Shown in pieces: positions 5,479 to 22,091 of a stretch of 54,138 nt of DNA. The first letter of the stretch is position 1. The number at the start of each line of letters is the position of its first letter. The position numbers and the translations under genes were made by a program. The notes beneath the pieces were generated by a model. The model had not been told where the DNA came from. It saw only the letters and a list, made by a program, of their open reading frames with translations, and searched no databases. This DNA is from a virus: IMG/VR virus record IMGVR_UViG_3300031566_000048; one strand, given 5' to 3'.

Positions 5479-6630
5479 ATGTCTCAATATGATAAAACAA
5501 TGAGTAAATTTAACTCTACTGATACATCGGTAGGGTCTAGTATCGGCACAAAAGATATTAAATCAACAGCAGGATTTAATAATAATGGGTTCGTGCAAGA
5601 CGATTTAGAAGTATGGATTAAAGATGCTTCTGCTGTTAGCGGTTCAAAACTTACAAGAATAAATGATTTAAACTCTGTGTATGAAACTTTAGGAGATGCT
5701 GGAGACCAAATATTATTCGGTTCACCAGTACAATGTTGGGGAATATATAGTTCATTATTAACAGCTAAAAGTAACGAGCAATATATAGGTAAATATTATA
5801 GCTCAAGTTTAGCTGATTTAAAAGAAACTACATATATGAGTGTTGTGGATGAGTTTTTAAATCAAAATAAAACTAATGTATTTGAGGCTTTAGTTTCAAA
5901 TAACATTACAATGAATAAAAAAATAAGACTTGACTGGATGTCAAATACACCAAGTGGAATTTTAGATAAAATACCAGCAACTAATGATGGCGTTAATAGA
6001 TATTGGTGGGCGTTAGAAGTCCCTGTCGGTGGACTTACAACTACTCCAAGACTTATTGATACTGCGTATAGAGGTAGTGGATTATCTAAAATAGAATATA
6101 ATCAACAGGATGTTTATTGGGGTAATGCTAGATTACAAGACCAAAAAAATATTAATACTGATAATATTAGAACTCCCTCAGGTACGCCTGTTGTAAGCAT
6201 TGATATAACATCTACGCAAGTACAATTAGTTTACAATATGAGAAGTGCTTTAAATGATAATGTTGTATTTAGGTGGCAATTACCTGTAGGTATAGATACA
6301 TCAACTCCTATAGATATTGACTTTAGTTACATAGCTAATGCTGCTATAAATACTGCCGATATAAATATTGATATTAAAAAATTAACACAAGGTAGTATCG
6401 TAGGAGCAGGTGAAACATCTGATTTAAATCAAACGGAAAACATAAATATAACTGCAGGAAACACAATAAATTTATGTCATAATTTAGCAACTGATTTTGA
6501 TATATCGGATATGAAACCATTTGATATTTTATCAATTGAAGTAATAAGAACCGATAGTAATGGTGGTAGTTTTTATCCGTTACATTCTTGTATCAAACAT
6601 ACTCTATTTAAAATGGGGAAGTTTAGCTAA
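5479..6630 (+). CDS. Hypothetical large virion-module protein
   Basis: RBS 'taggagat'. 383 aa with no recognisable motif. Confidence 0.55.
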   Translation: MSQYDKTMSKFNSTDTSVGSSIGTKDIKSTAGFNNNGFVQDDLEVWIKDASAVSGSKLTRINDLNSVYETLGDAGDQILFGSPVQCWGIYSSLLTAKSNEQYIGKYYSSSLADLKETTYMSVVDEFLNQNKTNVFEALVSNNITMNKKIRLDWMSNTPSGILDKIPATNDGVNRYWWALEVPVGGLTTTPRLIDTAYRGSGLSKIEYNQQDVYWGNARLQDQKNINTDNIRTPSGTPVVSIDITSTQVQLVYNMRSALNDNVVFRWQLPVGIDTSTPIDIDFSYIANAAINTADINIDIKKLTQGSIVGAGETSDLNQTENINITAGNTINLCHNLATDFDISDMKPFDILSIEVIRTDSNGGSFYPLHSCIKHTLFKMGKFS

Positions 6631-10931: not shown

Positions 10932-10960
10932 TTGACTAGCCATTATTTTTATGTTACGAT
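10932..10960 (+). promoter_or_regulatory. Promoter of the element A transposase
   Basis: TTGACT (10932-10937), 17-nt spacer, TACGAT (10955-10960). Confidence 0.5.
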
Positions 10961-10986
10961 ATGTTTATATTAGGAGGATACATATT

Positions 10987-11928
10987 ATGATTAAATTTAG
11001 TCTAATTGAATTTTTTAAGAAGTTTCCAAGTGAAGAGGATGCCACACTTTATTTTGAAAAATTAAGATGGGGAAATGATATTACTTGTCCTTATTGTAAA
11101 AGCAAGTCTATATCAGAATGTGTAAGGCCAATGCCATATAGATGTCGTGATTGTCGCAAACATTTTAGTGTTAGGGTTGGAACTATACTATCAGAGTCAA
11201 AATTACCACTTCAAAAATGGTTATTGGCCATATACATACTTACTAATTCTAAAAAGGGTATTTCTTCAATTCAGTTGGCCGAGTATTTAGAAACTACTCA
11301 AAAAACAGCTTGGTTTTTAGCTCATAGAATAAGGGAAACTTGGTTGCAAGAAAATGATAAACTTGATGGAGTTATTGAAATTGACGAAACATACATTGGG
11401 GGAAAAGAGGGCAATAAACATCAGAACAAGAAAACATTAAATACACAGGGTAGAAGTACAAAAACAAAAATGGCTATACTTGGAGCACTAGAAAGACGAG
11501 GAAAAATAAAGGCCAAGATAGTAAATAATACAAATGAAACTACTATAAATTACTTTGCTAATAATAATATTAAAAAATCTGCAATACTTAATACTGATGA
11601 GTATAGAAGTTATAATCAACTTAAAAATCAGGGTTTTATACACAAAAGAGTAAAACATTCAGTAAAAGAATATGTATATGGCCAATATCATACAAATGGA
11701 ATAGAAAGTTTTTGGGCTTTGTTAAAAAGAGGGTATTATGGAATTTATCATCATATGAGTTCAAAACATTTACAGAGATATATAGATGAGTTTTCTAACA
11801 GGCATAATATGATAGAAACCTCTGGAATTGATAAAATAAAAGTCACATTTAATAAGGGTATAGGTAAGAAACTAACCTATAGGGAGCTAATAAATGACAA
11901 AAAAAAAGAAAATTATAGAACCAATTAA
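10987..11928 (+). CDS. IS1595-family (ISXO2-like) DDE transposase
   Basis: N-terminal zinc ribbon 'CPYCKS...YRCRDCRKHFS', 'GISSIQLAEYL..TQKTAWFLAHRIRE', and DDE motifs 'IEIDETYIGG', 'NTDEY', 'TNGIESFW'. Start moved to the ATG after RBS 'taggagga'. Confidence 0.9.
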   Translation: MIKFSLIEFFKKFPSEEDATLYFEKLRWGNDITCPYCKSKSISECVRPMPYRCRDCRKHFSVRVGTILSESKLPLQKWLLAIYILTNSKKGISSIQLAEYLETTQKTAWFLAHRIRETWLQENDKLDGVIEIDETYIGGKEGNKHQNKKTLNTQGRSTKTKMAILGALERRGKIKAKIVNNTNETTINYFANNNIKKSAILNTDEYRSYNQLKNQGFIHKRVKHSVKEYVYGQYHTNGIESFWALLKRGYYGIYHHMSSKHLQRYIDEFSNRHNMIETSGIDKIKVTFNKGIGKKLTYRELINDKKKENYRTN

Positions 11929-12946: not shown

Positions 12947-13396
12947 TTAGTAATGTAAATTTAAACTTTGGCTAGTTAAGTATATAAATCCCTTATATTT
13001 AATACCTTTTTTTGTTACTGATATAAAAAGATGCTCGCCATTGTAATTTGTATCTCTCAATATTTGTTTAATTTTTATAGTTCTAGTGTTGTCATCTCTA
13101 CCGTCCCATTCTTTATTAACCCTGTATAGAGTTTTTCTATGTACTCCACAAATTTTAGCAAGACCAGTCTCTGTTAAATAAGGTATTCCATTTTCTAATA
13201 CTCCCATTATTATACCATCTACATCTTTTTCTACATCCACTATAAAAGAAAACTCGTCTTGACCTGCGCCCAAATTCGGTGTTTTGCGGGTGTTTTTAAT
13301 TAATTTCCCCTCTGAAACAATGGGTGCGCCCAGTTCGCTTTTTTTCACTCTAGCAACACGATTTAAAAATTCTTCAAATTTTTTTTTCTTATCCAT
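12947..13396 (-). pseudogene. N-terminal fragment of the element B passenger gene. The last 16 codons are read from the element A inverted repeat.
   Basis: '...GIIMGVLENGIPYLTETGLAKICG...VTKKGIKY' and then out into the IR ('KGFIYLTSQSLNLHY*'). Confidence 0.8.
12993..13000. repeat. 8-bp target-site duplication 'TTATATTT', right copy
   Basis: See 10883-10890. Confidence 0.9.
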
Positions 13397-14306
13397 TTAT
13401 AAGCTCCTTATACTGTAATCTCTTACCACTTGTTAAACTAAAAAACTCATTTATCCGTTCCTGTATACTGTAACCCCTTGTATTCCAACGAAAACAAAAC
13501 ATATCGGCATATTTTTGTATATGCTTTTTACTAGCAGAGTGATATATTCCATTTATTGTTCTTTTAAAATGAGCAAATGAACCCTCTATATTATTTGTAG
13601 TAATCCCGCCTTTGCCTACATACTCTTTAAAGGTATGGTTAACTATTTTTCTTTTATCTTTTGGTAAGAACTTATATATAGGGCTTTCGTCTGTATGTAT
13701 TATAGCATTATCAGATATATTACTTTCAATAATTGGCTTTACATTGCCTTTAGTGGCTTTCTCTATGCTTTGATATTTAATACTGCCTTTTTTCTCTACC
13801 ATACCCAGTATGGGCTTTTTATCGCCTAATATGGTGTTATATTCTTTGGTGCGTTTGTTTTTATGCTTGTTTGTTTCCTTACCGCCTATATATGTTTCGT
13901 CAACCTCTACAATGCCTTTTAACGGCTTTTTAAATGAATTACTATCTACCGCATATCTTAACCTTTGTAAGATATACCACGCTGTTTTTTGTGTTACTTT
14001 AATGTCTTTTGAAAGCTGTAAACTGGATATACCCTTTTTATGTGAAGTCATTAAATAGATTGCCATAAACCATTTTTTTAATGAAATTTTACTATCTTCA
14101 AATATAGTGCCTATTTTAACACCAAACTTTTTTCTACACTCCGCACATTTATGAGTTTTATTATTAGAAAAATGATAGATTTTTTTACTGTTACAAAACG
14201 GACAGTAAAAACCATCTTTGTATATTATTGCAGTGAGATATTTTATACACTTTAATTCGGTATCAAAGGTATTTATTACTTCTAAAAAACTGTTAAATTT
14301 TTTCAT
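13389..14306 (-). CDS. IS1595-family DDE transposase (element B), a divergent paralogue of 10987..11928
   Basis: 'CPFCNS...HKCAECRKKFG', 'GISSLQLSKDI..TQKTAWYILQRLR', 'VEVDETYIGG', 'HTDES', 'NNIEGSF'. Confidence 0.9.
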   Translation of the reverse strand: MKKFNSFLEVINTFDTELKCIKYLTAIIYKDGFYCPFCNSKKIYHFSNNKTHKCAECRKKFGVKIGTIFEDSKISLKKWFMAIYLMTSHKKGISSLQLSKDIKVTQKTAWYILQRLRYAVDSNSFKKPLKGIVEVDETYIGGKETNKHKNKRTKEYNTILGDKKPILGMVEKKGSIKYQSIEKATKGNVKPIIESNISDNAIIHTDESPIYKFLPKDKRKIVNHTFKEYVGKGGITTNNIEGSFAHFKRTINGIYHSASKKHIQKYADMFCFRWNTRGYSIQERINEFFSLTSGKRLQYKELING

Positions 14307-17260: not shown

Positions 17261-17954
17261 AATTGCTGTTAATAAAATGGTTCAAGCTGAATTAGAAAAG
17301 AAAAAAAACAATATTAATAAAATTGAACAAAAAAAAATAAAAGAACCAGTATGGTGTGAAAAATGTGGATTTTCAAAAACAGGCGATATATGTCAAAAAT
17401 GCGTTGAAATTGAAAAAGAGGTACAAGTTATGGCTAATGACAAAAAAAACGCTACAATAGCAAGTTTGGGCGGTTTAAGAGCATATGAGAAGTATACTGT
17501 TAATAATTTTAATGATAAAAATATTTTAAAAGATTGTTTAGGATATCCAAACATAAATATATATATAACTGGGGCAGTTGGAACGGGTAAAACTCATTTA
17601 GGAACAGCATTAATAAGAAAGTGCGAAAATTTTAATCGCTTTAGTAGTATACAAATTTGCCGGGAATTAAGAAAAACCCAAAGTAGTGCTAATCCTGCAC
17701 TATCAGAAGAAAAACTAATTAAAAACTTAAGTGAAATTCCTTTAATGATAGACGATTTCGGTGTTGAAAAAACCACAGAATATACTAAACAGACTTTATA
17801 TGAAATTATTGATAAAAGATATGAGTTAGGAAATGGCGGTTTAATTATAACCAGTAACTTTGAACTTGGAAAAAATAGAATTTCTAGCAGGTTATATGAA
17901 ATGTGTAAAATTATCAAATTAGACGGAAATGATTTTAGGTTAAAAAAACTATGA
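17235..17954 (+). CDS. DnaC/IstB-like AAA+ helicase loader
   Basis: Walker A 'TGAVGTGKTHL' and Walker B 'LMIDDFG'. RBS 'aggag' before the ATG at 17235. The track start at 17205 is also possible. Confidence 0.8.
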   Translation: MTLENSHIEIAVNKMVQAELEKKKNNINKIEQKKIKEPVWCEKCGFSKTGDICQKCVEIEKEVQVMANDKKNATIASLGGLRAYEKYTVNNFNDKNILKDCLGYPNINIYITGAVGTGKTHLGTALIRKCENFNRFSSIQICRELRKTQSSANPALSEEKLIKNLSEIPLMIDDFGVEKTTEYTKQTLYEIIDKRYELGNGGLIITSNFELGKNRISSRLYEMCKIIKLDGNDFRLKKL

Positions 17955-20479
17955 AAGAATACCTAAATAAAGTGCATAATTGCGATTGTTTGGAGCTGTT
18001 AAAAAAGTTGCCTGATAATAGTGTTGATTGTATTGTAACCGACCCACCTTACGAATTAGGATTTATGAATAAAAAATGGGATAGCACAGGCATTTCTTAT
18101 AATGTAGATTTATGGCGTGAATGCTTGCGTGTACTTAAATCAGGCGGTCATTTACTTGCTTTTGGGGGAAGTAGAACATATCATAGAATGGCTTGTGCTA
18201 TAGAAGATGCGGGCTTTGAAATAAGAGACCAAATACAATGGTTGTATGGATGTATAAGTGAGGATACTGAAATATTAACCATTAATGGTTGGAAGCATTA
18301 CTATAAAGACATTGATAAAAATCCCGTATTATGCTATAGTATAAAAGATAATAGTTTTAAATTTGAAATACCAAAAAGAAAATTTTATTATGAAAACAAA
18401 TATCCCGCATACCATATTAAATCAGATTTTACAAACCAAATTGTCTCTACAGGACATAACTGTATTATTGAACGAAACGGAAAAAAAGTATTTAAAAAAG
18501 CCGATGCACTTCAATGCAAAGAGAGCGTACCCTTTTTGGAAAGTTTGCAGGAATTGCCTGAAACCATACCTTTGTTACACAAAGGAACAAGCATTAAGAA
18601 ACAAGACTTGCTCAAAGAATTGTGCAGGAAAACTTGTATCAAAAATAAGACCAAAAAGAAAAATAAAATATTTAGTAGAAAAAATATGTTTAATATGTGG
18701 AACATCATTTTTAGCAAGACGAGACAAAATATCAAAATATTGTTCTTACAAATGCAACGGTATGATAAGAGGACAGGAGTGGAAAAAACACGCACACAAG
18801 GGCAGATTTGCTTGGAGCAAAGAAGCAGAGGAAAGTTGCAAAAAGAAAATGACTGGCTCAAAAAATCCAGCTTGGAAAGGTGGAGTAACTTATTTCAAAA
18901 AAAAAGGCAATTATACTGGCGTAGTTTATGTCAGGTGTCCACAGAAATATTTAAGTATGGCACGCAAAGACGGATATGTTATGCAACACAGATTAATAAT
19001 GGCACAGCATTTGAAAAAAATTTTAAAAAGAACGGAAGTTGTGCATCATATAGACCACAATCCGAGCAACAACAAAATAAACAATCTAATGCTATTTCCA
19101 ACAAACAAAGCACACAAAATATACGAAGGACAAATGCGGAAGTTAAACAAATAAATTATAAAGGTAAAATGTGGTGCATTGAAACTGAAAGTGGCGCATT
19201 TGTTGCTAGGCGTAAGGGAAAAATATTTATTACAGGAAACAGTGGCTTCCCTAAAAGTTTAAATATATCAAAAGCGATAGATAAAAAGTTTGGAGCGAAG
19301 AGGGAAGTTTTTAAAAAATCAGTTTCATATCCTGATAGTGATTGTTGGGGTATATCTAATCCCACAACTGTAAAAAATAATTCAAGTTATATTGTTAATA
19401 CTAATAATATAAATGCTGGTAAGGGAATGAGATATGATAGTAAACCATCAACCCCCGAAGCCAAACAATGGGACGGTTGGGGTTCAGCTCTTAAACCAGC
19501 ACACGAGCCAATATGTATGGCACGAAAACCACTATCAGAAAAAACAATTGCGGATAATGTTTTAAAATATGGCACTGGGGGAATAAATATAGATGCTTGT
19601 CGTATAAATGTTTCAAATGAAGATTTGGAGCAAAATATAAAAAGAAGAGGAACTAAATATTTAAATAAAAAAAGTAGAATAACTGGAAATGAAGTTACTA
19701 ATTTTCCAATAGGTTTATGTAAAACTATATCAAAACAAGGACGCTTTCCCTCAAATGTAATATTATCACATCACAATGAATGTGTGGAAATTGGGGTTAA
19801 AGAGGTTAATGGTATAAGTGGTGGAACAAATAAAACTGGTAATAATTTTATGGGAAAATATAAACAAGGACATAAACCATTTAATTATGCTAAAAACGGC
19901 AAAGAAATAGTATCTCATTACGAATGCCACCCTGATTGCCCTATTGGTATTTTGGATAAGCAGAGTGGGTTAAGACCTAGTAGCGGAAGAATTGGGGAAA
20001 GTGGAAGTGGAATTGGTGCTATTAATGGAATTTATCAAAAAGGTATGGGTGGTAAAAGAATGGATACTTATTTTGACATAGGCACAGCATCCCGCTTTTT
20101 TTATTGTGCTAAAAGTTCACGGGCAGAAAGGAATAAAGGTTGTGAAAATTTGGAAGATAAAAAACAGAGGGCGAATTATAAGGTTAGTGGAGGTCGTTCA
20201 TTTAAAAATGGAGAATGGATAGAAAATAATTCTAAACCAAAATTAAGACAAAATTTTCATCCCTGTGTTAAACCAAAAAAACTAATGCAATATCTTATTA
20301 AACTTATTACACCACCTAACGGAATTGTACTTGATATTTTTTCAGGTTCTGGTAGCACTTTGGTAGCTTGCAAAAGTTTAGGATTTGATTTTATAGGCAT
20401 TGAAAAGGAACAAAAGTATTGCCGTATAGCAGAGGCTCGCATTGCCAAAGAACAGGTACAAGGAAAATTTGATTTATGA
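17951..20479 (+). CDS. DNA methyltransferase (N6_N4_Mtase family, DPPY motif, probably N6-adenine) interrupted by a 330-aa intein
   Basis: 'VTDPPY' and 'GGHLLAFGG'. The conserved 'WLYG/SGFPKS' motif is split by the insert. C-terminal 'FHPCVKPKKLMQYLIKLITPPNGIVLDIFSGSGST' is the AdoMet motif. Confidence 0.9.
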   Translation: MKEYLNKVHNCDCLELLKKLPDNSVDCIVTDPPYELGFMNKKWDSTGISYNVDLWRECLRVLKSGGHLLAFGGSRTYHRMACAIEDAGFEIRDQIQWLYGCISEDTEILTINGWKHYYKDIDKNPVLCYSIKDNSFKFEIPKRKFYYENKYPAYHIKSDFTNQIVSTGHNCIIERNGKKVFKKADALQCKESVPFLESLQELPETIPLLHKGTSIKKQDLLKELCRKTCIKNKTKKKNKIFSRKNMFNMWNIIFSKTRQNIKILFLQMQRYDKRTGVEKTRTQGQICLEQRSRGKLQKENDWLKKSSLERWSNLFQKKRQLYWRSLCQVSTEIFKYGTQRRICYATQINNGTAFEKNFKKNGSCASYRPQSEQQQNKQSNAISNKQSTQNIRRTNAEVKQINYKGKMWCIETESGAFVARRKGKIFITGNSGFPKSLNISKAIDKKFGAKREVFKKSVSYPDSDCWGISNPTTVKNNSSYIVNTNNINAGKGMRYDSKPSTPEAKQWDGWGSALKPAHEPICMARKPLSEKTIADNVLKYGTGGINIDACRINVSNEDLEQNIKRRGTKYLNKKSRITGNEVTNFPIGLCKTISKQGRFPSNVILSHHNECVEIGVKEVNGISGGTNKTGNNFMGKYKQGHKPFNYAKNGKEIVSHYECHPDCPIGILDKQSGLRPSSGRIGESGSGIGAINGIYQKGMGGKRMDTYFDIGTASRFFYCAKSSRAERNKGCENLEDKKQRANYKVSGGRSFKNGEWIENNSKPKLRQNFHPCVKPKKLMQYLIKLITPPNGIVLDIFSGSGSTLVACKSLGFDFIGIEKEQKYCRIAEARIAKEQVQGKFDL
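18251..19240 (+). other. Intein (residues 101-430 of the methyltransferase)
   Basis: Starts with Cys in 'C-ISEDTEILT' and contains 'STGHNCII'. Ends '...MWCIETESGAFVA...KIFITGN' followed by the +1 extein Ser of SGFPKS. Confidence 0.8.
18363..19154 (+). CDS. HNH homing endonuclease encoded in the +1 frame within the intein. Start uncertain: TTG 18363, ATG 18390 or ATG 18504.
   Basis: 'CRNC..CSKNC', 'CLICG...YCSYKCNG', 'KNPAWKGG', 'DGYVMQHRLIMAQHL...VVHHIDHNPSNNKINNLMLFPTNKAH'. Confidence 0.8.
   Translation: MKYQKENFIMKTNIPHTILNQILQTKLSLQDITVLLNETEKKYLKKPMHFNAKRAYPFWKVCRNCLKPYLCYTKEQALRNKTCSKNCAGKLVSKIRPKRKIKYLVEKICLICGTSFLARRDKISKYCSYKCNGMIRGQEWKKHAHKGRFAWSKEAEESCKKKMTGSKNPAWKGGVTYFKKKGNYTGVVYVRCPQKYLSMARKDGYVMQHRLIMAQHLKKILKRTEVVHHIDHNPSNNKINNLMLFPTNKAHKIYEGQMRKLNK
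20458..20479 (+). repeat. 22-bp direct repeat 'acaaggaaaatttgatttatga', copy 1
   Basis: Identical to 20830-20851. Includes the methylase stop and the next ATG. Confidence 0.9.
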
Positions 20480-20954: not shown

Positions 20955-20984
20955 TTGACAATTTTTTTAAATTAATGCTACAAT
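20955..20984 (+). promoter_or_regulatory. Early promoter, upstream member of the second tandem pair
   Basis: TTGACA (20955-20960), 18 nt, TACAAT (20979-20984). Confidence 0.55.
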
Positions 20985-21033
20985 TTTTATGTAGTAGTTT
21001 TAAGAGGGAAAATAGCAAGTAATAAAAAAGTAC

Positions 21034-21113
21034 TTGACAAGAAATAAAAAAGTTGTTATAATAATAGTGTAGTAGAAAAGAAGTAAAAAAACTGAAACCA
21101 AAGGAGAGAGAAA
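21034..21113 (+). promoter_or_regulatory. Early promoter plus conserved leader, paralogous to 14458..14539
   Basis: TTGACA (21034-21039), 17 nt, TATAAT (21057-21062). Shares the leader sequence. Confidence 0.65.
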
Positions 21114-21305
21114 ATGGAAAATCAAAACGAAAAAGAGTTAACAATAGGATGTATGGTTATGGTTGACAATAAAATTGGAAGAATTACATATATACAGCCA
21201 AACAGACGGATGGCAAGGGTTAGGTTCTCTTTGGAAAAATGTCAATTATGTTTTGTATCCGATATTTCAAAAACAAATTTAAAAAAAGATGTTTATGTAA
21301 ACTAA
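21114..21305 (+). CDS. Hypothetical early protein
   Basis: RBS 'aaaggagag'. Confidence 0.5.
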   Translation: MENQNEKELTIGCMVMVDNKIGRITYIQPNRRMARVRFSLEKCQLCFVSDISKTNLKKDVYVN

Positions 21306-21308
21306 TTA

Positions 21309-21375
21309 AAACCCGCCTAATTCTCTGGCGGTTTCAGAAACCCCCGCTCTTTCGGGAGCCGTAAGGGTGGGGGAT
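21309..21375 (+). terminator. GC-rich stem-loops after 21114..21305
   Basis: 'ccgcc-taattctct-ggcgg', then 'ccccc gctc-tttcgg-gagc ... ggggg'. Confidence 0.4.
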
Positions 21376-21400
21376 AAAATAAAAGTTCTTTTAAAAATTT

Positions 21401-21547
21401 GGCAGGGTGGCGGAATAGGTAGACGCTTATCATTGGTAAGGTTATTGACTGTCTGACGCTTAATTTCGGTATGACGCCTTTTTAGGTGCGTTGTGGTAAC
21501 CCAAGGATATATAACTATGTAGGGTGCAAATCCCTGCCCCTGCCCCA
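21401..21547 (+). ncRNA. tRNA-like RNA of 147 nt with an oversized anticodon-arm region (intron-containing tRNA or tRNA mimic)
   Basis: 5' 'GGCAGGG' pairs with 'CCCTGCC' (21538-21544), followed by CCA. Leu-type D-arm 'GCGGAATAGGTAGACGC'. T-arm 'TAGGG-TGCAAAT-CCCTG'. About 65 extra nt lie between the anticodon-like loop 'TTGGTAA' and its 3' partner. Confidence 0.55.
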
Positions 21548-21567
21548 AATTTCAACAGGAGGATTTA

Positions 21568-21750
21568 ATGTTTAGAAAAATATTAAGTTGGATTTCAAAG
21601 AAAGCATATCTATGTGGCAGAGTAGACGCTTTTACGGAAGTTTATAATAATCGCAACAAGTGCGGACAATTCATTTCAACATCAGATTTTTGTACACAAG
21701 AAATGGAAAAAGATAGTAAGAAAATTTTAAAATTACTTACTAGAAAATAA
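21568..21750 (+). CDS. Hypothetical protein
   Basis: RBS 'caggagga'. Confidence 0.5.
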   Translation: MFRKILSWISKKAYLCGRVDAFTEVYNNRNKCGQFISTSDFCTQEMEKDSKKILKLLTRK

Positions 21751-21783
21751 AACAGGCTCTTTAAAACAGGTCATTCCCCAAAG

Positions 21784-21896
21784 TTAATTCCGTAGATTTC
21801 GACGGAATTAAAAAATGTATGCCCCTCACCTTGAGTGGTAGAAATTCAGGTAAGCACAAATTGTGCTCTACTGAAAACTAAAAGTGAGGGGGTAGT
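21784..21896 (+). promoter_or_regulatory. Structured 5' leader with a sequestered Shine-Dalgarno sequence
   Basis: 10-bp hairpin 'ttaattccgt/acggaattaa'. The long-range pairing 'cccctcac' (21823-21830) with 'gtgagggg' (21884-21891) covers the RBS of the ATG at 21897. Confidence 0.45.
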
Positions 21897-22091
21897 ATGA
21901 AAGAAATAGTTAGACAGGAAGTAGCAAAGGAAATTAGCAGGCAGGCAAATGAGTACGGAGTAGAGCAGTTTAATAGTAATTTGCCAAGTGAAACACGCAA
22001 ACAGTGCAACAAGTCAATTAACCACTTACAACAAATAGCAATAAATATTTTCGGTTTAAAAACAAGTGATTTTAGGAGGATAGCAAAATGA
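21897..22091 (+). CDS. Hypothetical protein
   Basis: RBS 'gaggggg'. Confidence 0.5.
   Translation: MKEIVRQEVAKEISRQANEYGVEQFNSNLPSETRKQCNKSINHLQQIAINIFGLKTSDFRRIAK

Follow-up and report, generated by a model that had tools for sequence, protein, structure and literature searches.

How is one to read a phage element that begins and ends as a transfer RNA does and carries, in place of the decoding arm, a long stretch resembling nothing in a tRNA? The question is raised by positions 21401-21547 of the window, by which we mean the whole 54,138-nucleotide stretch of viral DNA analysed here (IMG/VR record IMGVR_UViG_3300031566_000048). A preliminary description of the locus had seen canonical acceptor, D and T arms around an enlarged anticodon arm, and had proposed a tRNA with a short intron, a tRNA mimic or decoy, or a degenerate tRNA; its observation is partly confirmed below and its interpretation partly supported. 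The tRNA-like element is real, 147 nt long and on the + strand. It almost certainly does not read codons, and the account that we favour, with somewhat more confidence than doubt, is that it belongs to a widespread phage-borne family of non-decoding RNAs, derived from class-II tRNA-Leu and processed and stabilised by the host.

Anatomy and setting of the element

Among the proteins encoded in the window are terminase, portal, capsid and tail proteins; no RNA-related enzyme is evident among those that were scanned. The element sits between ORFs of 63 and 60 aa, with the flanking ORFs on the + strand and no tRNA gene near it, and the GC-rich non-coding island in which it had been placed is borne out by the base composition (21306-21567 has 45% G+C, the window as a whole 31%). 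Nothing resembling a terminator separates the upstream promoter-like sites from the element. The features are:

20955-20984 (+): first of two tandem sigma-70-type promoter-like sites, 11 of 12 matches, extended -10 TG
21034-21062 (+): second tandem sigma-70-type promoter-like site, 12 of 12 matches, extended -10 TG
21401-21407 (+): acceptor stem 5' strand GGCAGGG, pairing with CCCTGCC at 21538-21544, by direct reading
21408-21409 (+): U8 and G9, by direct reading
21410-21426 (+): class-II tRNA-Leu-type D-arm GCGGAAUAGGUAGACGC, with D-stem GCG/CGC
within 21410-21426 (+): D-loop GAAUAGGUAGA, bearing A14, A15, G18, G19 and A20a
21427-21515 (+): lineage-specific central insert, replacing anticodon arm and variable arm
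21516-21518 (+): conserved Y-A-U ahead of the T-stem, the A being present in 84% of centre clusters and the U in 97%
21519-21537 (+): T-arm with 6-bp stem GUAGGG/CCCUGC including one U-G pair, by direct reading and family statistics
within 21519-21537 (+): 7-nt T-loop UGCAAAU, with U54, G55, C56, A57 and A58
21538-21544 (+): acceptor stem 3' strand CCCUGCC, by direct reading and family pairing
21545-21547 (+): CCA abutting the acceptor stem, without a discriminator base, by direct reading
21558-21750 (+): Shine-Dalgarno AGGAGG and 60-aa ORF, its start 20 nt after the element; context, outside the RNA

The 7-nt acceptor strand and its exact complement, as first described, form a 7-bp stem that covaries across the family, and the attribution of the D-arm to the Leu or class-II type is upheld, this arm being letter for letter that of genuine tRNA-Leu genes in L056 and L061. 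The T-arm is a different matter. It had been called canonical, with a 5-bp stem and a stray C, but the stem has 6 bp, the additional pair G21519-C21537 covarying as G-C and C-G in the family, and the loop has G where tRNAs carry the universal U55. By analogy with tRNA-Leu numbering, the U of Y-A-U may be placed as U48, partner of A15. The insert measures 89 nt as delimited here, or 92 nt if UAU is included.

The encoded CCA is present where it was reported, but a functional role for it is not supported, and it is no family feature: it starts right after the seventh acceptor pair, position 73 is C and not A, and only 7 of the 155 frames in the family have a CCA in this place. Most probably it is left over from the 3' end of a genuine tRNA, ACCA having lost its A. 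Taken as a whole, the element has an unremarkable predicted folding energy (z = -0.69), and the motif 'GACGC..GG' said to occur three times is weak, two of the copies being 76% alike and the first being the D-stem.

A family of frames under selection

The exact 19-nt D-arm followed by the 13-nt T-arm was taken as the family pattern and searched in IMG/VR. At least 231 loci carry it, with D-arm to T-arm gaps of 20-49 nt (24 loci), 50-79 nt (at least 120), 80-110 nt (51) and 111-140 nt (19); they comprise 155 distinct frames and 93 distinct acceptor strands, and about 101 mutually unrelated centre clusters, with centres of 25-140 nt, among the family loci listed. Over the family at large the insert ranges from 25 to 170 nt, and no frame in IMG/VR has a gap of less than 20 nt; this absence of empty frames rules out the centre as a facultative mobile insertion. 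The window has every family feature, namely the acceptor stem, UG plus the D-arm, Y-A-U, the 6-bp T-stem, UGCAAAU, a centre of at least 25 nt, a phage carrier and the same strand as its neighbours.

The acceptor stem and the T-stem covary strongly. The seven acceptor pairs are paired in 85-98% of the family as against 40-48% in column shuffles (97% in the shuffles for the seventh pair, which is invariant), and each of the four Watson-Crick combinations occurs among the first six. Across the 155 frames compensatory covariation is seen in 10 stem pairs; the three outer T-stem pairs covary, and in phage LP65 the D-stem covaries as well (ATG/CAT, GTG/CAC). G-U pairs outnumber A-C pairs in the stems by 62 to 23, a bias that together with the covariation indicates selection on the + strand RNA. 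The recurrence of a 19-nt and a 13-nt motif in so many phage loci with covarying stems shows, as judged from sequence comparison, a pattern far beyond chance, and the covariation that was to be sought among homologues is found in both acceptor and T-stem.

The near-invariance of D-loop and T-loop is partly a product of the search patterns, although relaxed scans gained few family variants (12 with the T-loop free, 5 with the D-loop free), the former scan also picking up two ordinary tRNA-Leu genes. When the D-loop was freed at 10 bases the exact same loop was found in 51 of 56 matches; with the T-loop freed, UGCAAAU was found in 51 of 63 family members and U55 in only 2. Frames with a different D-arm occur too, as element B of phage LP65 and L021:5540-5651 show. 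G55 is present in about 80% or more of members. Position 73 is A in 61% of frames and another base in 39%, and is A in every copy read from Lactobacillus phages and in the closest relative of the window, L257. The family D-arm differs from that of each carrier phage's own tRNA-Leu, and the element probably has a Leu-derived origin in a lineage separate from the carriers' own tRNA-Leu.

Unannotated copies are carried by cultured Lactobacillus, Enterococcus and Leuconostoc phages, including the L. plantarum phages LP65, Sha1, ATCC 8014-B2 and phiJL-1, in which a terminator-like hairpin and T-run can be read by eye 3' of the element. A tRNA or tmRNA gene lies within 300 nt at 30 of 162 loci, in all 30 on the same strand, and the element fills slots between tRNAs in L004, L009, L036 and phage LP65. 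The general idea of a tRNA mimic fares well in this light: the tRNA-like frame is conserved and covarying in more than 150 distinct copies and occupies slots in phage tRNA arrays. No conserved neighbouring gene emerged from all-against-all BLAST or from Pfam on 80 downstream proteins. The 3 kb around the element has no blastn match among INPHARED phages, and no description of the family was found in the full-text literature, the coverage of which is incomplete and leaves room for an earlier description.

The centre as an exchangeable cassette

The family, so far as its aligned members reveal, keeps the tRNA frame and swaps the decoding arm for an obligatory, sequence-free insert of variable length. 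Alignment of about 160 centres fails, and they share no conserved anticodon stem, anticodon loop or variable arm. The anticodon stem-loop TATCA/TTGGTAA/GGATA first proposed for the window thus lacks comparative support, because the region cannot be aligned across the family, and a decoy against anticodon nucleases is unlikely because there is no anticodon loop.

What centres do share is slight. On average they carry more structure than shuffled sequence does (mean z = -0.69, t = -7), and one centre hairpin has compensatory changes; the k-mers GTAAG, GGATA, GGTTC and GACTG are about 2-fold enriched, a weak signal. In some 20 members, the window among them (GGUUAU/AUAACU), one can draw a helix that abuts the T-stem and follows a linker of about 10-15 nt with R-U-A-A at its end; this helix is not general to the family. 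The window insert, at 38% G+C, is no more structured than shuffled sequence (z = +0.8). It is unrelated to every other centre compared, and no exact match to its start was found. No antisense target is apparent: when each centre is compared with its own locus, its longest complementary or repeated match exceeds shuffled controls by at most one base, and the window centre has weak complement or repeat matches and nothing more.

Between near-identical phages the borders of exchange fall precisely at the D-stem and T-stem. L001 and L002 have common flanks and different centres, whereas L038 and L068 have a common centre and different acceptor stems. In L257 the flanks are near-identical to those of the window and the frame is identical, and the centre, of 148 nt, is unrelated. 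The downstream 60-aa ORF of L257 is 98% identical to that of the window and represents the only homologue cluster of this ORF, contigs that bear the window's exact ORF being identical copies of the window. Following the element L257 reads ...CCCTGCC-ACAAAA, with A-CAA where the window has CCA. It also holds a separate relic, GCAGG-TTCAAAT-CCTGC-CCCTGCC-ACCA, succeeded by the window's own downstream flank, and the unit of T-arm, acceptor 3' strand and RBS is duplicated ahead of two successive ORFs. No genuine tRNA-Leu with the acceptor and D-arm of the window and the 3' end of the relic was found in JGI metagenomes, and the element does not occur in the phage's more distant relatives, traced through the YqaJ protein (26-61% identity).

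tRNA finders and known RNA families

In its default mode ARAGORN calls none of 162 family loci and nothing in the window, and at normal thresholds the intron and tmRNA modes, which the preliminary description had proposed as a check, also return nothing there. With -i -ps80 it builds a tRNA-Thr(GGU) model at 21402-21547, in which a 54-nt intron is accompanied by a long variable arm. The GGU anticodon suggested earlier appears at this setting only, amid 86 calls in 54 kb that can be regarded as junk; -ps70 gives one junk permuted tmRNA call. Rfam 15 matches nothing in the window, whether the cut-off is the gathering score or E<=10, and nothing in 20 family loci. The copy of phage Sha1, the shortest one read from a cultured phage, scores 25.1 bits against the Rfam tRNA model (RF00005; gathering score 29), the anticodon arm region being aligned as a 26-nt insertion. 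Of the canonical tRNA features the window retains the 7-bp acceptor, and lacks the anticodon arm, the 5-bp T-stem with U55 and discriminator, and a score above threshold.

The preliminary description had set aside a group I intron and a tmRNA on grounds of size. A tRNA interrupted by a group I intron is rejected on the 92-nt insert, the absence of an Rfam intron match and the absence of conserved anticodon-stem halves, and a tmRNA on the empty ARAGORN and Rfam results at normal thresholds and the lack of a tag reading frame. YrlA, or bacterial Y RNA, gives no Rfam match at E<=10; no TROVE/Ro domain occurs in the 20 window proteins scanned against Pfam, and Ro/Rsr is not among the 25 most frequent families of the 80 neighbour proteins at other loci.

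Relation to known tRNA-like RNAs

The family resembles phage tRNA-like RNAs that are already known, such as the species 1 RNA of T4. The species 1 and 2 RNAs (rnaC and rnaD) are stable RNAs of 139 and 119 nt in the phage tRNA cluster, on the tRNA strand, and rnaC, like the family, has a T-arm (CCGGG-TTCGAAT-CCCGG) followed by an acceptor-like strand and a large non-tRNA middle. Unlike the family, it has no Leu-type D-arm, 6-bp T-stem or UGCAAAU loop. No sequence relationship between the element and rnaC or rnaD is evident, with no common motifs beyond the T-arm (rnaC being compared by eye), and Rfam has no family for either. The hosts differ as well, T4 belonging to the T-even phages of enterobacteria and the family to Firmicutes-type phages. 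We know of no function for the T4 species 1 and 2 RNAs, nor of any hypervariable cassette behaviour in rnaC.

With class-II tRNA-Leu the family has in common the D-arm, the 7-bp acceptor, U8, A14/A15, G18G19, A20a, a U at the 48 position, U54, C56 and A58. The element differs in having no anticodon arm or defined variable arm, a T-stem of 6 rather than 5 bp, G55 rather than U55 and generally no CCA. According to the review PMC9976931, the minimal tRNA-Leu of Larkin et al. (2002), without anticodon and variable arms, remains a substrate of LeuRS. Such minimal tRNA-Leu molecules and tRNA scaffolds, like the family, retain the acceptor, D and T frame and have the anticodon region deleted or replaced; they are artificial constructs, whereas the family is natural and evolving. 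Laboratory tRNA scaffolds for RNA expression depend on host processing and stability.

YrlA, the tRNA-like domain of tmRNA and the B. cereus tRNA-Other resemble the family as non-decoding mimics of elbow and acceptor that are handled by tRNA enzymes, but the YrlA, tmRNA and other Rfam models do not match the element, which has no tag reading frame. The topology of YrlA is permuted, its ends lying in the Ro-binding stem. Phages P1 and P7 make the C4 antisense RNA, a small RNA that RNase P matures and whose variable loops set immunity specificity. It offers a possible analogy for a constant scaffold with a variable part, although the centres of the family have no complementarity to nearby phage sequence above shuffles and Rfam C4 is not matched.

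A proposed mode of action and its alternatives

In the account that we favour, the RNA would be transcribed with its neighbours, here putatively from strong early promoters in the region of 20955-21062. Its frame would form an acceptor/T minihelix and a D-loop/T-loop elbow, and would recruit host RNase P at the 5' end and RNase Z or exonucleases at the 3' end. It would in this way drive the cutting out of the RNA from a polycistronic or tRNA-array transcript, and may then confer tRNA-like stability on the excised molecule, as a natural 'tRNA scaffold'. Some features count against this account. With its 13-bp (7+6) acceptor/T helix and its G55 the frame differs from the standard substrates of RNase P, RNase Z and the CCA enzyme, and neither the window's centre nor the folding energy of the element stands out from shuffled sequence. 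In the window, which has no tRNA gene near the element and an ORF 20 nt beyond it, a function in cis, in mRNA processing, fits equally well.

A more specific version, which we put forward tentatively and think unlikely to hold as a whole, is that Firmicutes-type phages use a programmable natural tRNA scaffold, recognisable by LeuRS and the processing enzymes and kept off the ribosome, to carry a rapidly swapped RNA payload that reflects an arms race. The absence of an anticodon, the 13-bp helix and G55 would keep such a molecule off the ribosome; its payloads might, for example, act as decoys or aptamers that target host defence or RNA-binding proteins, or might determine immunity specificity between competing phages. 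In a variant, members with A73 would be leucylated and could serve as non-ribosomal Leu donors or as sponges for toxins that act on the acceptor end.

The cis role can be stated as tRNA punctuation. The frame would serve only to recruit RNase P and RNase Z, which would cut the polycistronic early transcript between the 63-aa and 60-aa ORFs; where the downstream mRNA begins, how stable it is or how well it is translated would depend on this cut, the centre being a tolerated spacer. The element lies inside an operon without a terminator and just upstream of an SD-ATG, the doubled T-arm, acceptor strand and RBS unit of L257 precedes two successive ORFs, the centre varies freely in sequence and is unstructured in the window, and there is no partner protein, all of which such a role would accommodate. 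A spacer, however, need not always be retained at 25 nt or more, nor be more structured on average than shuffles, nor hold a hairpin with compensatory changes. Cleavage would need no more than a bare minihelix, whereas the whole Leu-type D-loop hardly varies; and the terminator-like hairpin and T-run of the L. plantarum phages point to a transcript end rather than an inter-cistronic site. We regard punctuation as unlikely.

A frame kept for leucyl-tRNA synthetase, yielding an RNA that is leucylated off the ribosome or that titrates LeuRS, is in our judgement a little less probable still. Bacterial LeuRS disregards the anticodon and variable arm, truncated tRNA-Leu without both staying active, and this dispensability is in favour of such a mimic (PMC9976931). 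The enzyme's determinants are A73, A15-U48, G18G19, A20a, G19-C56 and U54-A58 (PMC9976931), and the family keeps A14/A15, G18G19, A20a, U at the 48 position, C56 and U54/A58, with A73 in the majority of frames, in all Lactobacillus-phage copies read and in L257. G18:U55 is, on the other hand, reported as important for leucylation, and changing A73 to C abolishes charging of minimal tRNA-Leu (PMC9976931). Most members have G in place of U55, well over a third of frames lack A73, the 6-bp T-stem shifts the 3' end by one base pair, and CCA is seldom encoded. The window departs from the full bacterial Leu identity set at C73 and G55, the other elements being present.

That the locus is a decaying tRNA-Leu pseudogene, an attachment-site remnant or a DNA-level recombination 'linker' without RNA function is very improbable. 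The CCA of the window and the 3'-half relic of L257 do show tRNA-gene debris and recombination here, cassettes exchange exactly at the conserved arms, and the element is missing from more distant relatives. Against this stand the covarying stem pairs and the G-U excess, which speak for selection on the + strand RNA; integrases are not consistent neighbours, and a pseudogene would not preserve a 19-nt arm unchanged alongside a diverging acceptor stem. The earlier suggestion of a degenerate tRNA is likewise contradicted by the strong purifying selection on the frame.

Least credible of all is a functional tRNA with an unconventional short intron, which has the relaxed ARAGORN model and the tRNA-like frame on its side, and against it the flood of calls at that setting and none at the normal threshold in default or intron mode, the unconserved anticodon stem, loop and variable arm, the wholly different centre of L257, the lack of a match to group I or any other Rfam family, and the inconsistency of a Leu-type D-arm with a Thr anticodon. 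Removal of the insert would not leave a decodable tRNA, since neither side has a conserved anticodon stem-loop or variable arm, and to our knowledge bacterial tRNAs have no introns other than group I introns.

Significance

A large and easily recognised phage RNA family has been overlooked by tRNA finders, by Rfam 15 and by GenBank annotation in the cultured-phage records inspected. For annotation, its loci should not be labelled tRNA, pseudo-tRNA or intron-containing tRNA. Cultured and tractable carriers exist in the L. plantarum phages named above, and the long-standing question of what stable RNAs other than tRNAs, such as the T4 species 1 and 2 RNAs, do in the tRNA clusters of phages becomes testable. 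Hundreds of natural variants, with a constant frame and swapped centres, amount to a built-in experiment. As a natural analogue of engineered tRNA scaffolds and of minimal tRNA-Leu, the family may show which host factor phages exploit, the candidates being RNase P, RNase Z, the CCA enzyme and LeuRS.

The element in the window

The element is a 147-nt tRNA-like locus (21401-21547, + strand) whose acceptor, D-arm, T-arm and CCA, as spelled out in the preliminary description, were confirmed letter for letter on reading positions 21000-22000.

Parts of the element
21401-21407 and 21538-21544, + strand: acceptor stem, GGCAGGG and CCCTGCC, exact complements
21410-21426, + strand: D-arm GCGGAAUAGGUAGACGC, preceded by UG
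21519-21537, + strand: T-arm GUAGGG-UGCAAAU-CCCUGC, near the 3' end of the element
21545-21547, + strand: CCA

In the window, a tailed phage genome, genes for terminase, portal, capsid, tape measure and baseplate are accompanied by an early region that encodes YqaJ, RecT, a DNA methylase and an IstB-like protein. The element lies in a non-coding stretch (21306-21567) of 45% G+C, as against 31% in the window. Two sigma-70 consensus promoter-like sites lie upstream at 20955-21062, one of them a 12/12 match, and the window scan found no terminator-like site after them, so that the element is probably transcribed inside an early operon, between a 63-aa and a 60-aa ORF. At z = -0.69, the 147-mer folds with an unremarkable minimum free energy.

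ARAGORN finds neither tRNA nor tmRNA in the window, nor does it at its normal threshold with introns allowed, and Rfam 15 has no match that reaches its gathering scores and, at E<=10, none of relevance; these checks, which the preliminary description had proposed, leave the locus without a known family or an ordinary tRNA at normal thresholds. No test applied places the element in the tRNA, tmRNA, YrlA or group I intron families. The anticodon GGU that had been read in the element is recovered by ARAGORN only at -ps80, as a tRNA-Thr(GGU) whose intron would be 54 nt and whose variable arm 21 nt long, at a threshold that yields 86 'genes' in 54 kb; this assignment was mistaken, and related loci have no conserved anticodon loop in their centres. 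The window by itself would make a weak case.

A family with a constant frame

The constant frame comprises the acceptor stem, U8, Leu-type D-arm, Y-A-U and T-arm; the centre is the insert between D-stem and T-stem. IMG/VR was searched for the exact D-arm TGGCGGAATAGGTAGACGC and, after a gap, the exact T-arm core GGGTGCAAATCCC. Gaps of 0-19 nt gave zero loci, 20-49 nt gave 24, 50-79 nt at least 120, 80-110 nt 51 and 111-140 nt 19. With the T-loop unconstrained, only 12 further members appeared (loops UGCGAAU, UGCAGAU, UGUAAAU and, in two cases, UUCAAAU), along with two ordinary tRNA-Leu genes that have an identical D-arm; freeing ten D-loop bases added five, all single-base variants. The family totals at least 231 loci, and among the matches listed the centres come in 163 versions, the frames in 155 and the acceptor 5' strands in 93; clustering sorts the centres into 101 groups with essentially no sequence in common.

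A one-genome-per-species scan gave seven matches, one in Smithellaceae and six in Clostridia (Christensenella, Peptococcaceae, Peptococcales, Oscillospiraceae, Acutalibacter and an unclassified Clostridia MAG). BLAST with the T-arm region revealed unannotated copies in cultured phages of Lactobacillus plantarum (LP65, Sha1, ATCC 8014-B2, phiJL-1, P1, P2, Lpa804, Lenus, Iacchus, Bromius, Dionysus and Gut-P1) and in L. pentosus LpeD, Enterococcus EG-TP1, Leuconostoc phiLM33_01 and Hujiaoplasma zrk29-2; those in Sha1, ATCC 8014-B2 and LP65 were inspected directly. No description of the family was found in the full-text literature, of which coverage was incomplete, and tRNA-like candidates receive only general mention in a survey, published in 2023, of candidate structured RNAs from IMG/VR; that the family has already been described elsewhere is rather unlikely.

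Across the 155 frames the seven acceptor pairs are 85-98% paired; pairs one to six show all four Watson-Crick types, where column shuffles reach only 40-48%, and the seventh is a nearly invariant G-C. With at least 231 loci and covarying stems, the observation that opened this analysis is real and far from chance. The T-arm had been recognized correctly, whereas its reading as a 5-bp stem plus an 'extra C' gives way to a 6-bp stem whose three outer pairs covary, the outermost including G-C and C-G, which explains the additional base. Directly before it stands Y-A-U (A in 84%, U in 97%). G-U pairs outnumber A-C pairs in the family stems (62 versus 23), which indicates an RNA read from the + strand. 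Immediately 3' of the acceptor stem 61% of frames have A, and 54% have U at the position after that; pairing of leader and trailer often extends the acceptor by one or two further steps. CCA is encoded in only 7 of the 155, and to read it as functional is wrong. In LP65 the D-stem covaries (GCG/CGC to AUG/CAU or GUG/CAC) around an unchanged D-loop. Genuine tRNA-Leu genes of the same phages have D-arms that differ from that of the family, so that the family forms one coherent lineage rather than a collection of copies made locally. What the + strand encodes here is a structured RNA under selection, derived from a class-II tRNA-Leu.

Exchange of centres

The centre is obligatory but free in sequence. 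Its length runs from 25 to about 170 nt, alignment fails, a few pentamers are only about 2-fold enriched, and antisense targets looked for nearby were not found. Structure in the set of centres modestly exceeds that of dinucleotide shuffles (mean z = -0.69, t = -7, n = 101), but the centre in the window is no more structured than its shuffles (z = +0.8). For one 58-nt centre with good sampling the fold is a lone hairpin in which one pair is doubly compensated. In sequence comparisons the centres behave as cassettes: two loci (L001 and L002) share identical flanks and acceptor stems around unrelated centres, and two others (L038 and L068) share a centre apart from a few positions while their acceptor stems differ.

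The most telling case is the sibling phage, the closest relative of the window. ENA and Logan assemblies contain copies identical to the window's contig, and the sibling is represented by L257 (JGI 3300031565) and, in one of those ENA samples, by L258. Flanks are near-identical, the 60-aa ORF is 98% identical in protein and the frame is exactly the same, but the sibling centre is 148 nt of unrelated sequence, with break points precisely after GACGC and before UAUG-UAGGG. The sibling element is followed by A-CAAAA, not CCA, and then in L257 by an inserted 72-aa ORF, beyond which (L257:2950-2990) lies a relic tRNA 3' half, GCAGG-UUCAAAU-CCUGC-CCCUGCC-ACCA, duplicated together with the RBS flank and directly preceding the same flank that follows the window's element. 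The window CCA is accordingly best read as a leftover, ACCA minus A, of a genuine tRNA 3' end after recombination, and the relic suggests that gene cassettes are exchanged through recombination at tRNA-like 3' ends.

Several other features of these two genomes were recorded. A 74-nt 'mini' tRNA-like element just upstream of the sibling's Leu-frame element (L257:2481-2554, also L258:859-932), absent in the window, has a 7-bp acceptor (GGGAGUG/CACUCCC), one long hairpin in place of the D-arm, and a 6-bp T-like stem with loop UUAAAAU that abuts the acceptor 3' strand. Intergenic, G+C-rich, very stable hairpins without T-tails flank the window's element and its downstream ORF (21306-21400 and 21752-21897, + strand; z = -2.9 and -2.6); the second upstream hairpin retains its outer CCCCC/GGGGG stem in L257 with the interior replaced, a 'constant shell, variable core' that is the same behaviour as that of the tRNA-like element. 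The window's DNA methylase (17951-20479, + strand; 842 aa) matches the 221-position Pfam N6_N4_Mtase profile over residues 25-828, which implies that several hundred extra residues interrupt the domain; at the same place L257 has a 487-aa methylase. Two IS1595-family (ISXO2-like DDE) transposase ORFs in opposite orientation (10951-11928, + strand; 13389-14306, - strand) carry only the PHROGs label 'unknown function'.

Genomic setting

Widely carried by phages, the element sits in places typical of tRNA genes. Family elements share the strand of their neighbours; a bona fide tRNA or tmRNA lies within 300 nt in 30 of 162 loci with distinct centres, on the same strand in all 30, and ARAGORN never called the element itself in those 162. 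It occupies a slot in a tRNA array at the loci L004, L009, L036 and L058 and in ATCC 8014-B2 and LP65, and in contig L063 it lies 29 nt upstream of a phage tmRNA on the same strand. No neighbouring protein family is consistent: terminases, methylases, integrases, HNH nucleases and other families are each found near a few elements. The element is absent from more distant relatives of the window phage and is therefore acquired sporadically.

Some individual loci deserve record. Contig L063 (1505-1857 and 1886-2019) carries a Leu-frame element and a full-length tmRNA (Rfam, 147 bits). The Acutalibacter-type prophage L021 has, some 500 nt upstream of its Leu-frame element, a class-I tRNA frame (5540-5651; Rfam tRNA model, 50.6 bits) with a loop of ~44 nt in place of the 7-nt anticodon loop, so that oversized centres may also occur in tRNA frames other than the Leu type; another lone T-arm lies at about 5960-5990. 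Sha1 (HQ141411), read by eye, has at 1224-1290, ~150 nt upstream of its Leu-frame element, a tRNA-like element of ~67 nt with acceptor AUCGCUG/CGGCGAU, a different D-arm (GGC-UAAUUGGCAA-GCC), a linker of only 11 nt and a 4-bp T-stem with loop UUCGAGG. The LP65 record (NC_006565, 80-2240) places tRNA genes on the strand opposite to ARAGORN's and labels tRNA-Pro(UGG) a 'tRNA-OTHER' pseudogene; two tandem Leu-frame elements between those tRNAs are unannotated.

Interpretation

The nearest natural analogues are the species 1 and 2 RNAs of T4, stable RNAs from a phage tRNA cluster that likewise have no Rfam family; rnaC combines a T-arm and acceptor-like ends with a large middle. In function, the closest parallels are engineered minimal tRNA-Leu and the tRNA scaffolds used in laboratories. 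The broader idea of a tRNA mimic was right, in that a tRNA-derived, covarying frame stands where tRNA genes stand. Beyond the structure every mechanistic step is inference, and the most likely mechanism, in which we place moderate confidence, is that the frame would recruit the host tRNA-processing machinery, which would excise and stabilise an RNA unable to decode.

One rival is a 'punctuation' signal that would act in cis on mRNA processing; it gains appeal from the element's place in the window, 20 nt before an SD-ATG, and from the T-arm-plus-RBS unit duplicated in L257. A mimic of leucyl-tRNA synthetase (LeuRS) is a further rival: the E. coli enzyme requires A73, A15-U48, G18G19, A20a and D/T-loop contacts and dispenses with the anticodon and variable arms, a truncated tRNA-Leu without both arms being still active (PMC9976931), and the family retains almost exactly this set; however, U55 is G in most members, A73 is missing in 39% of frames, and the window has C73, a substitution that reportedly leaves minimal tRNA-Leu uncharged (PMC9976931). 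An intron-containing tRNA, the short-intron reading of the preliminary description, and a decaying pseudogene are effectively excluded by the family search, frame anatomy and centre data.

The element is an entry to a large, apparently uncatalogued family of phage RNAs of unusual design, in which a constant frame holds a swappable centre.
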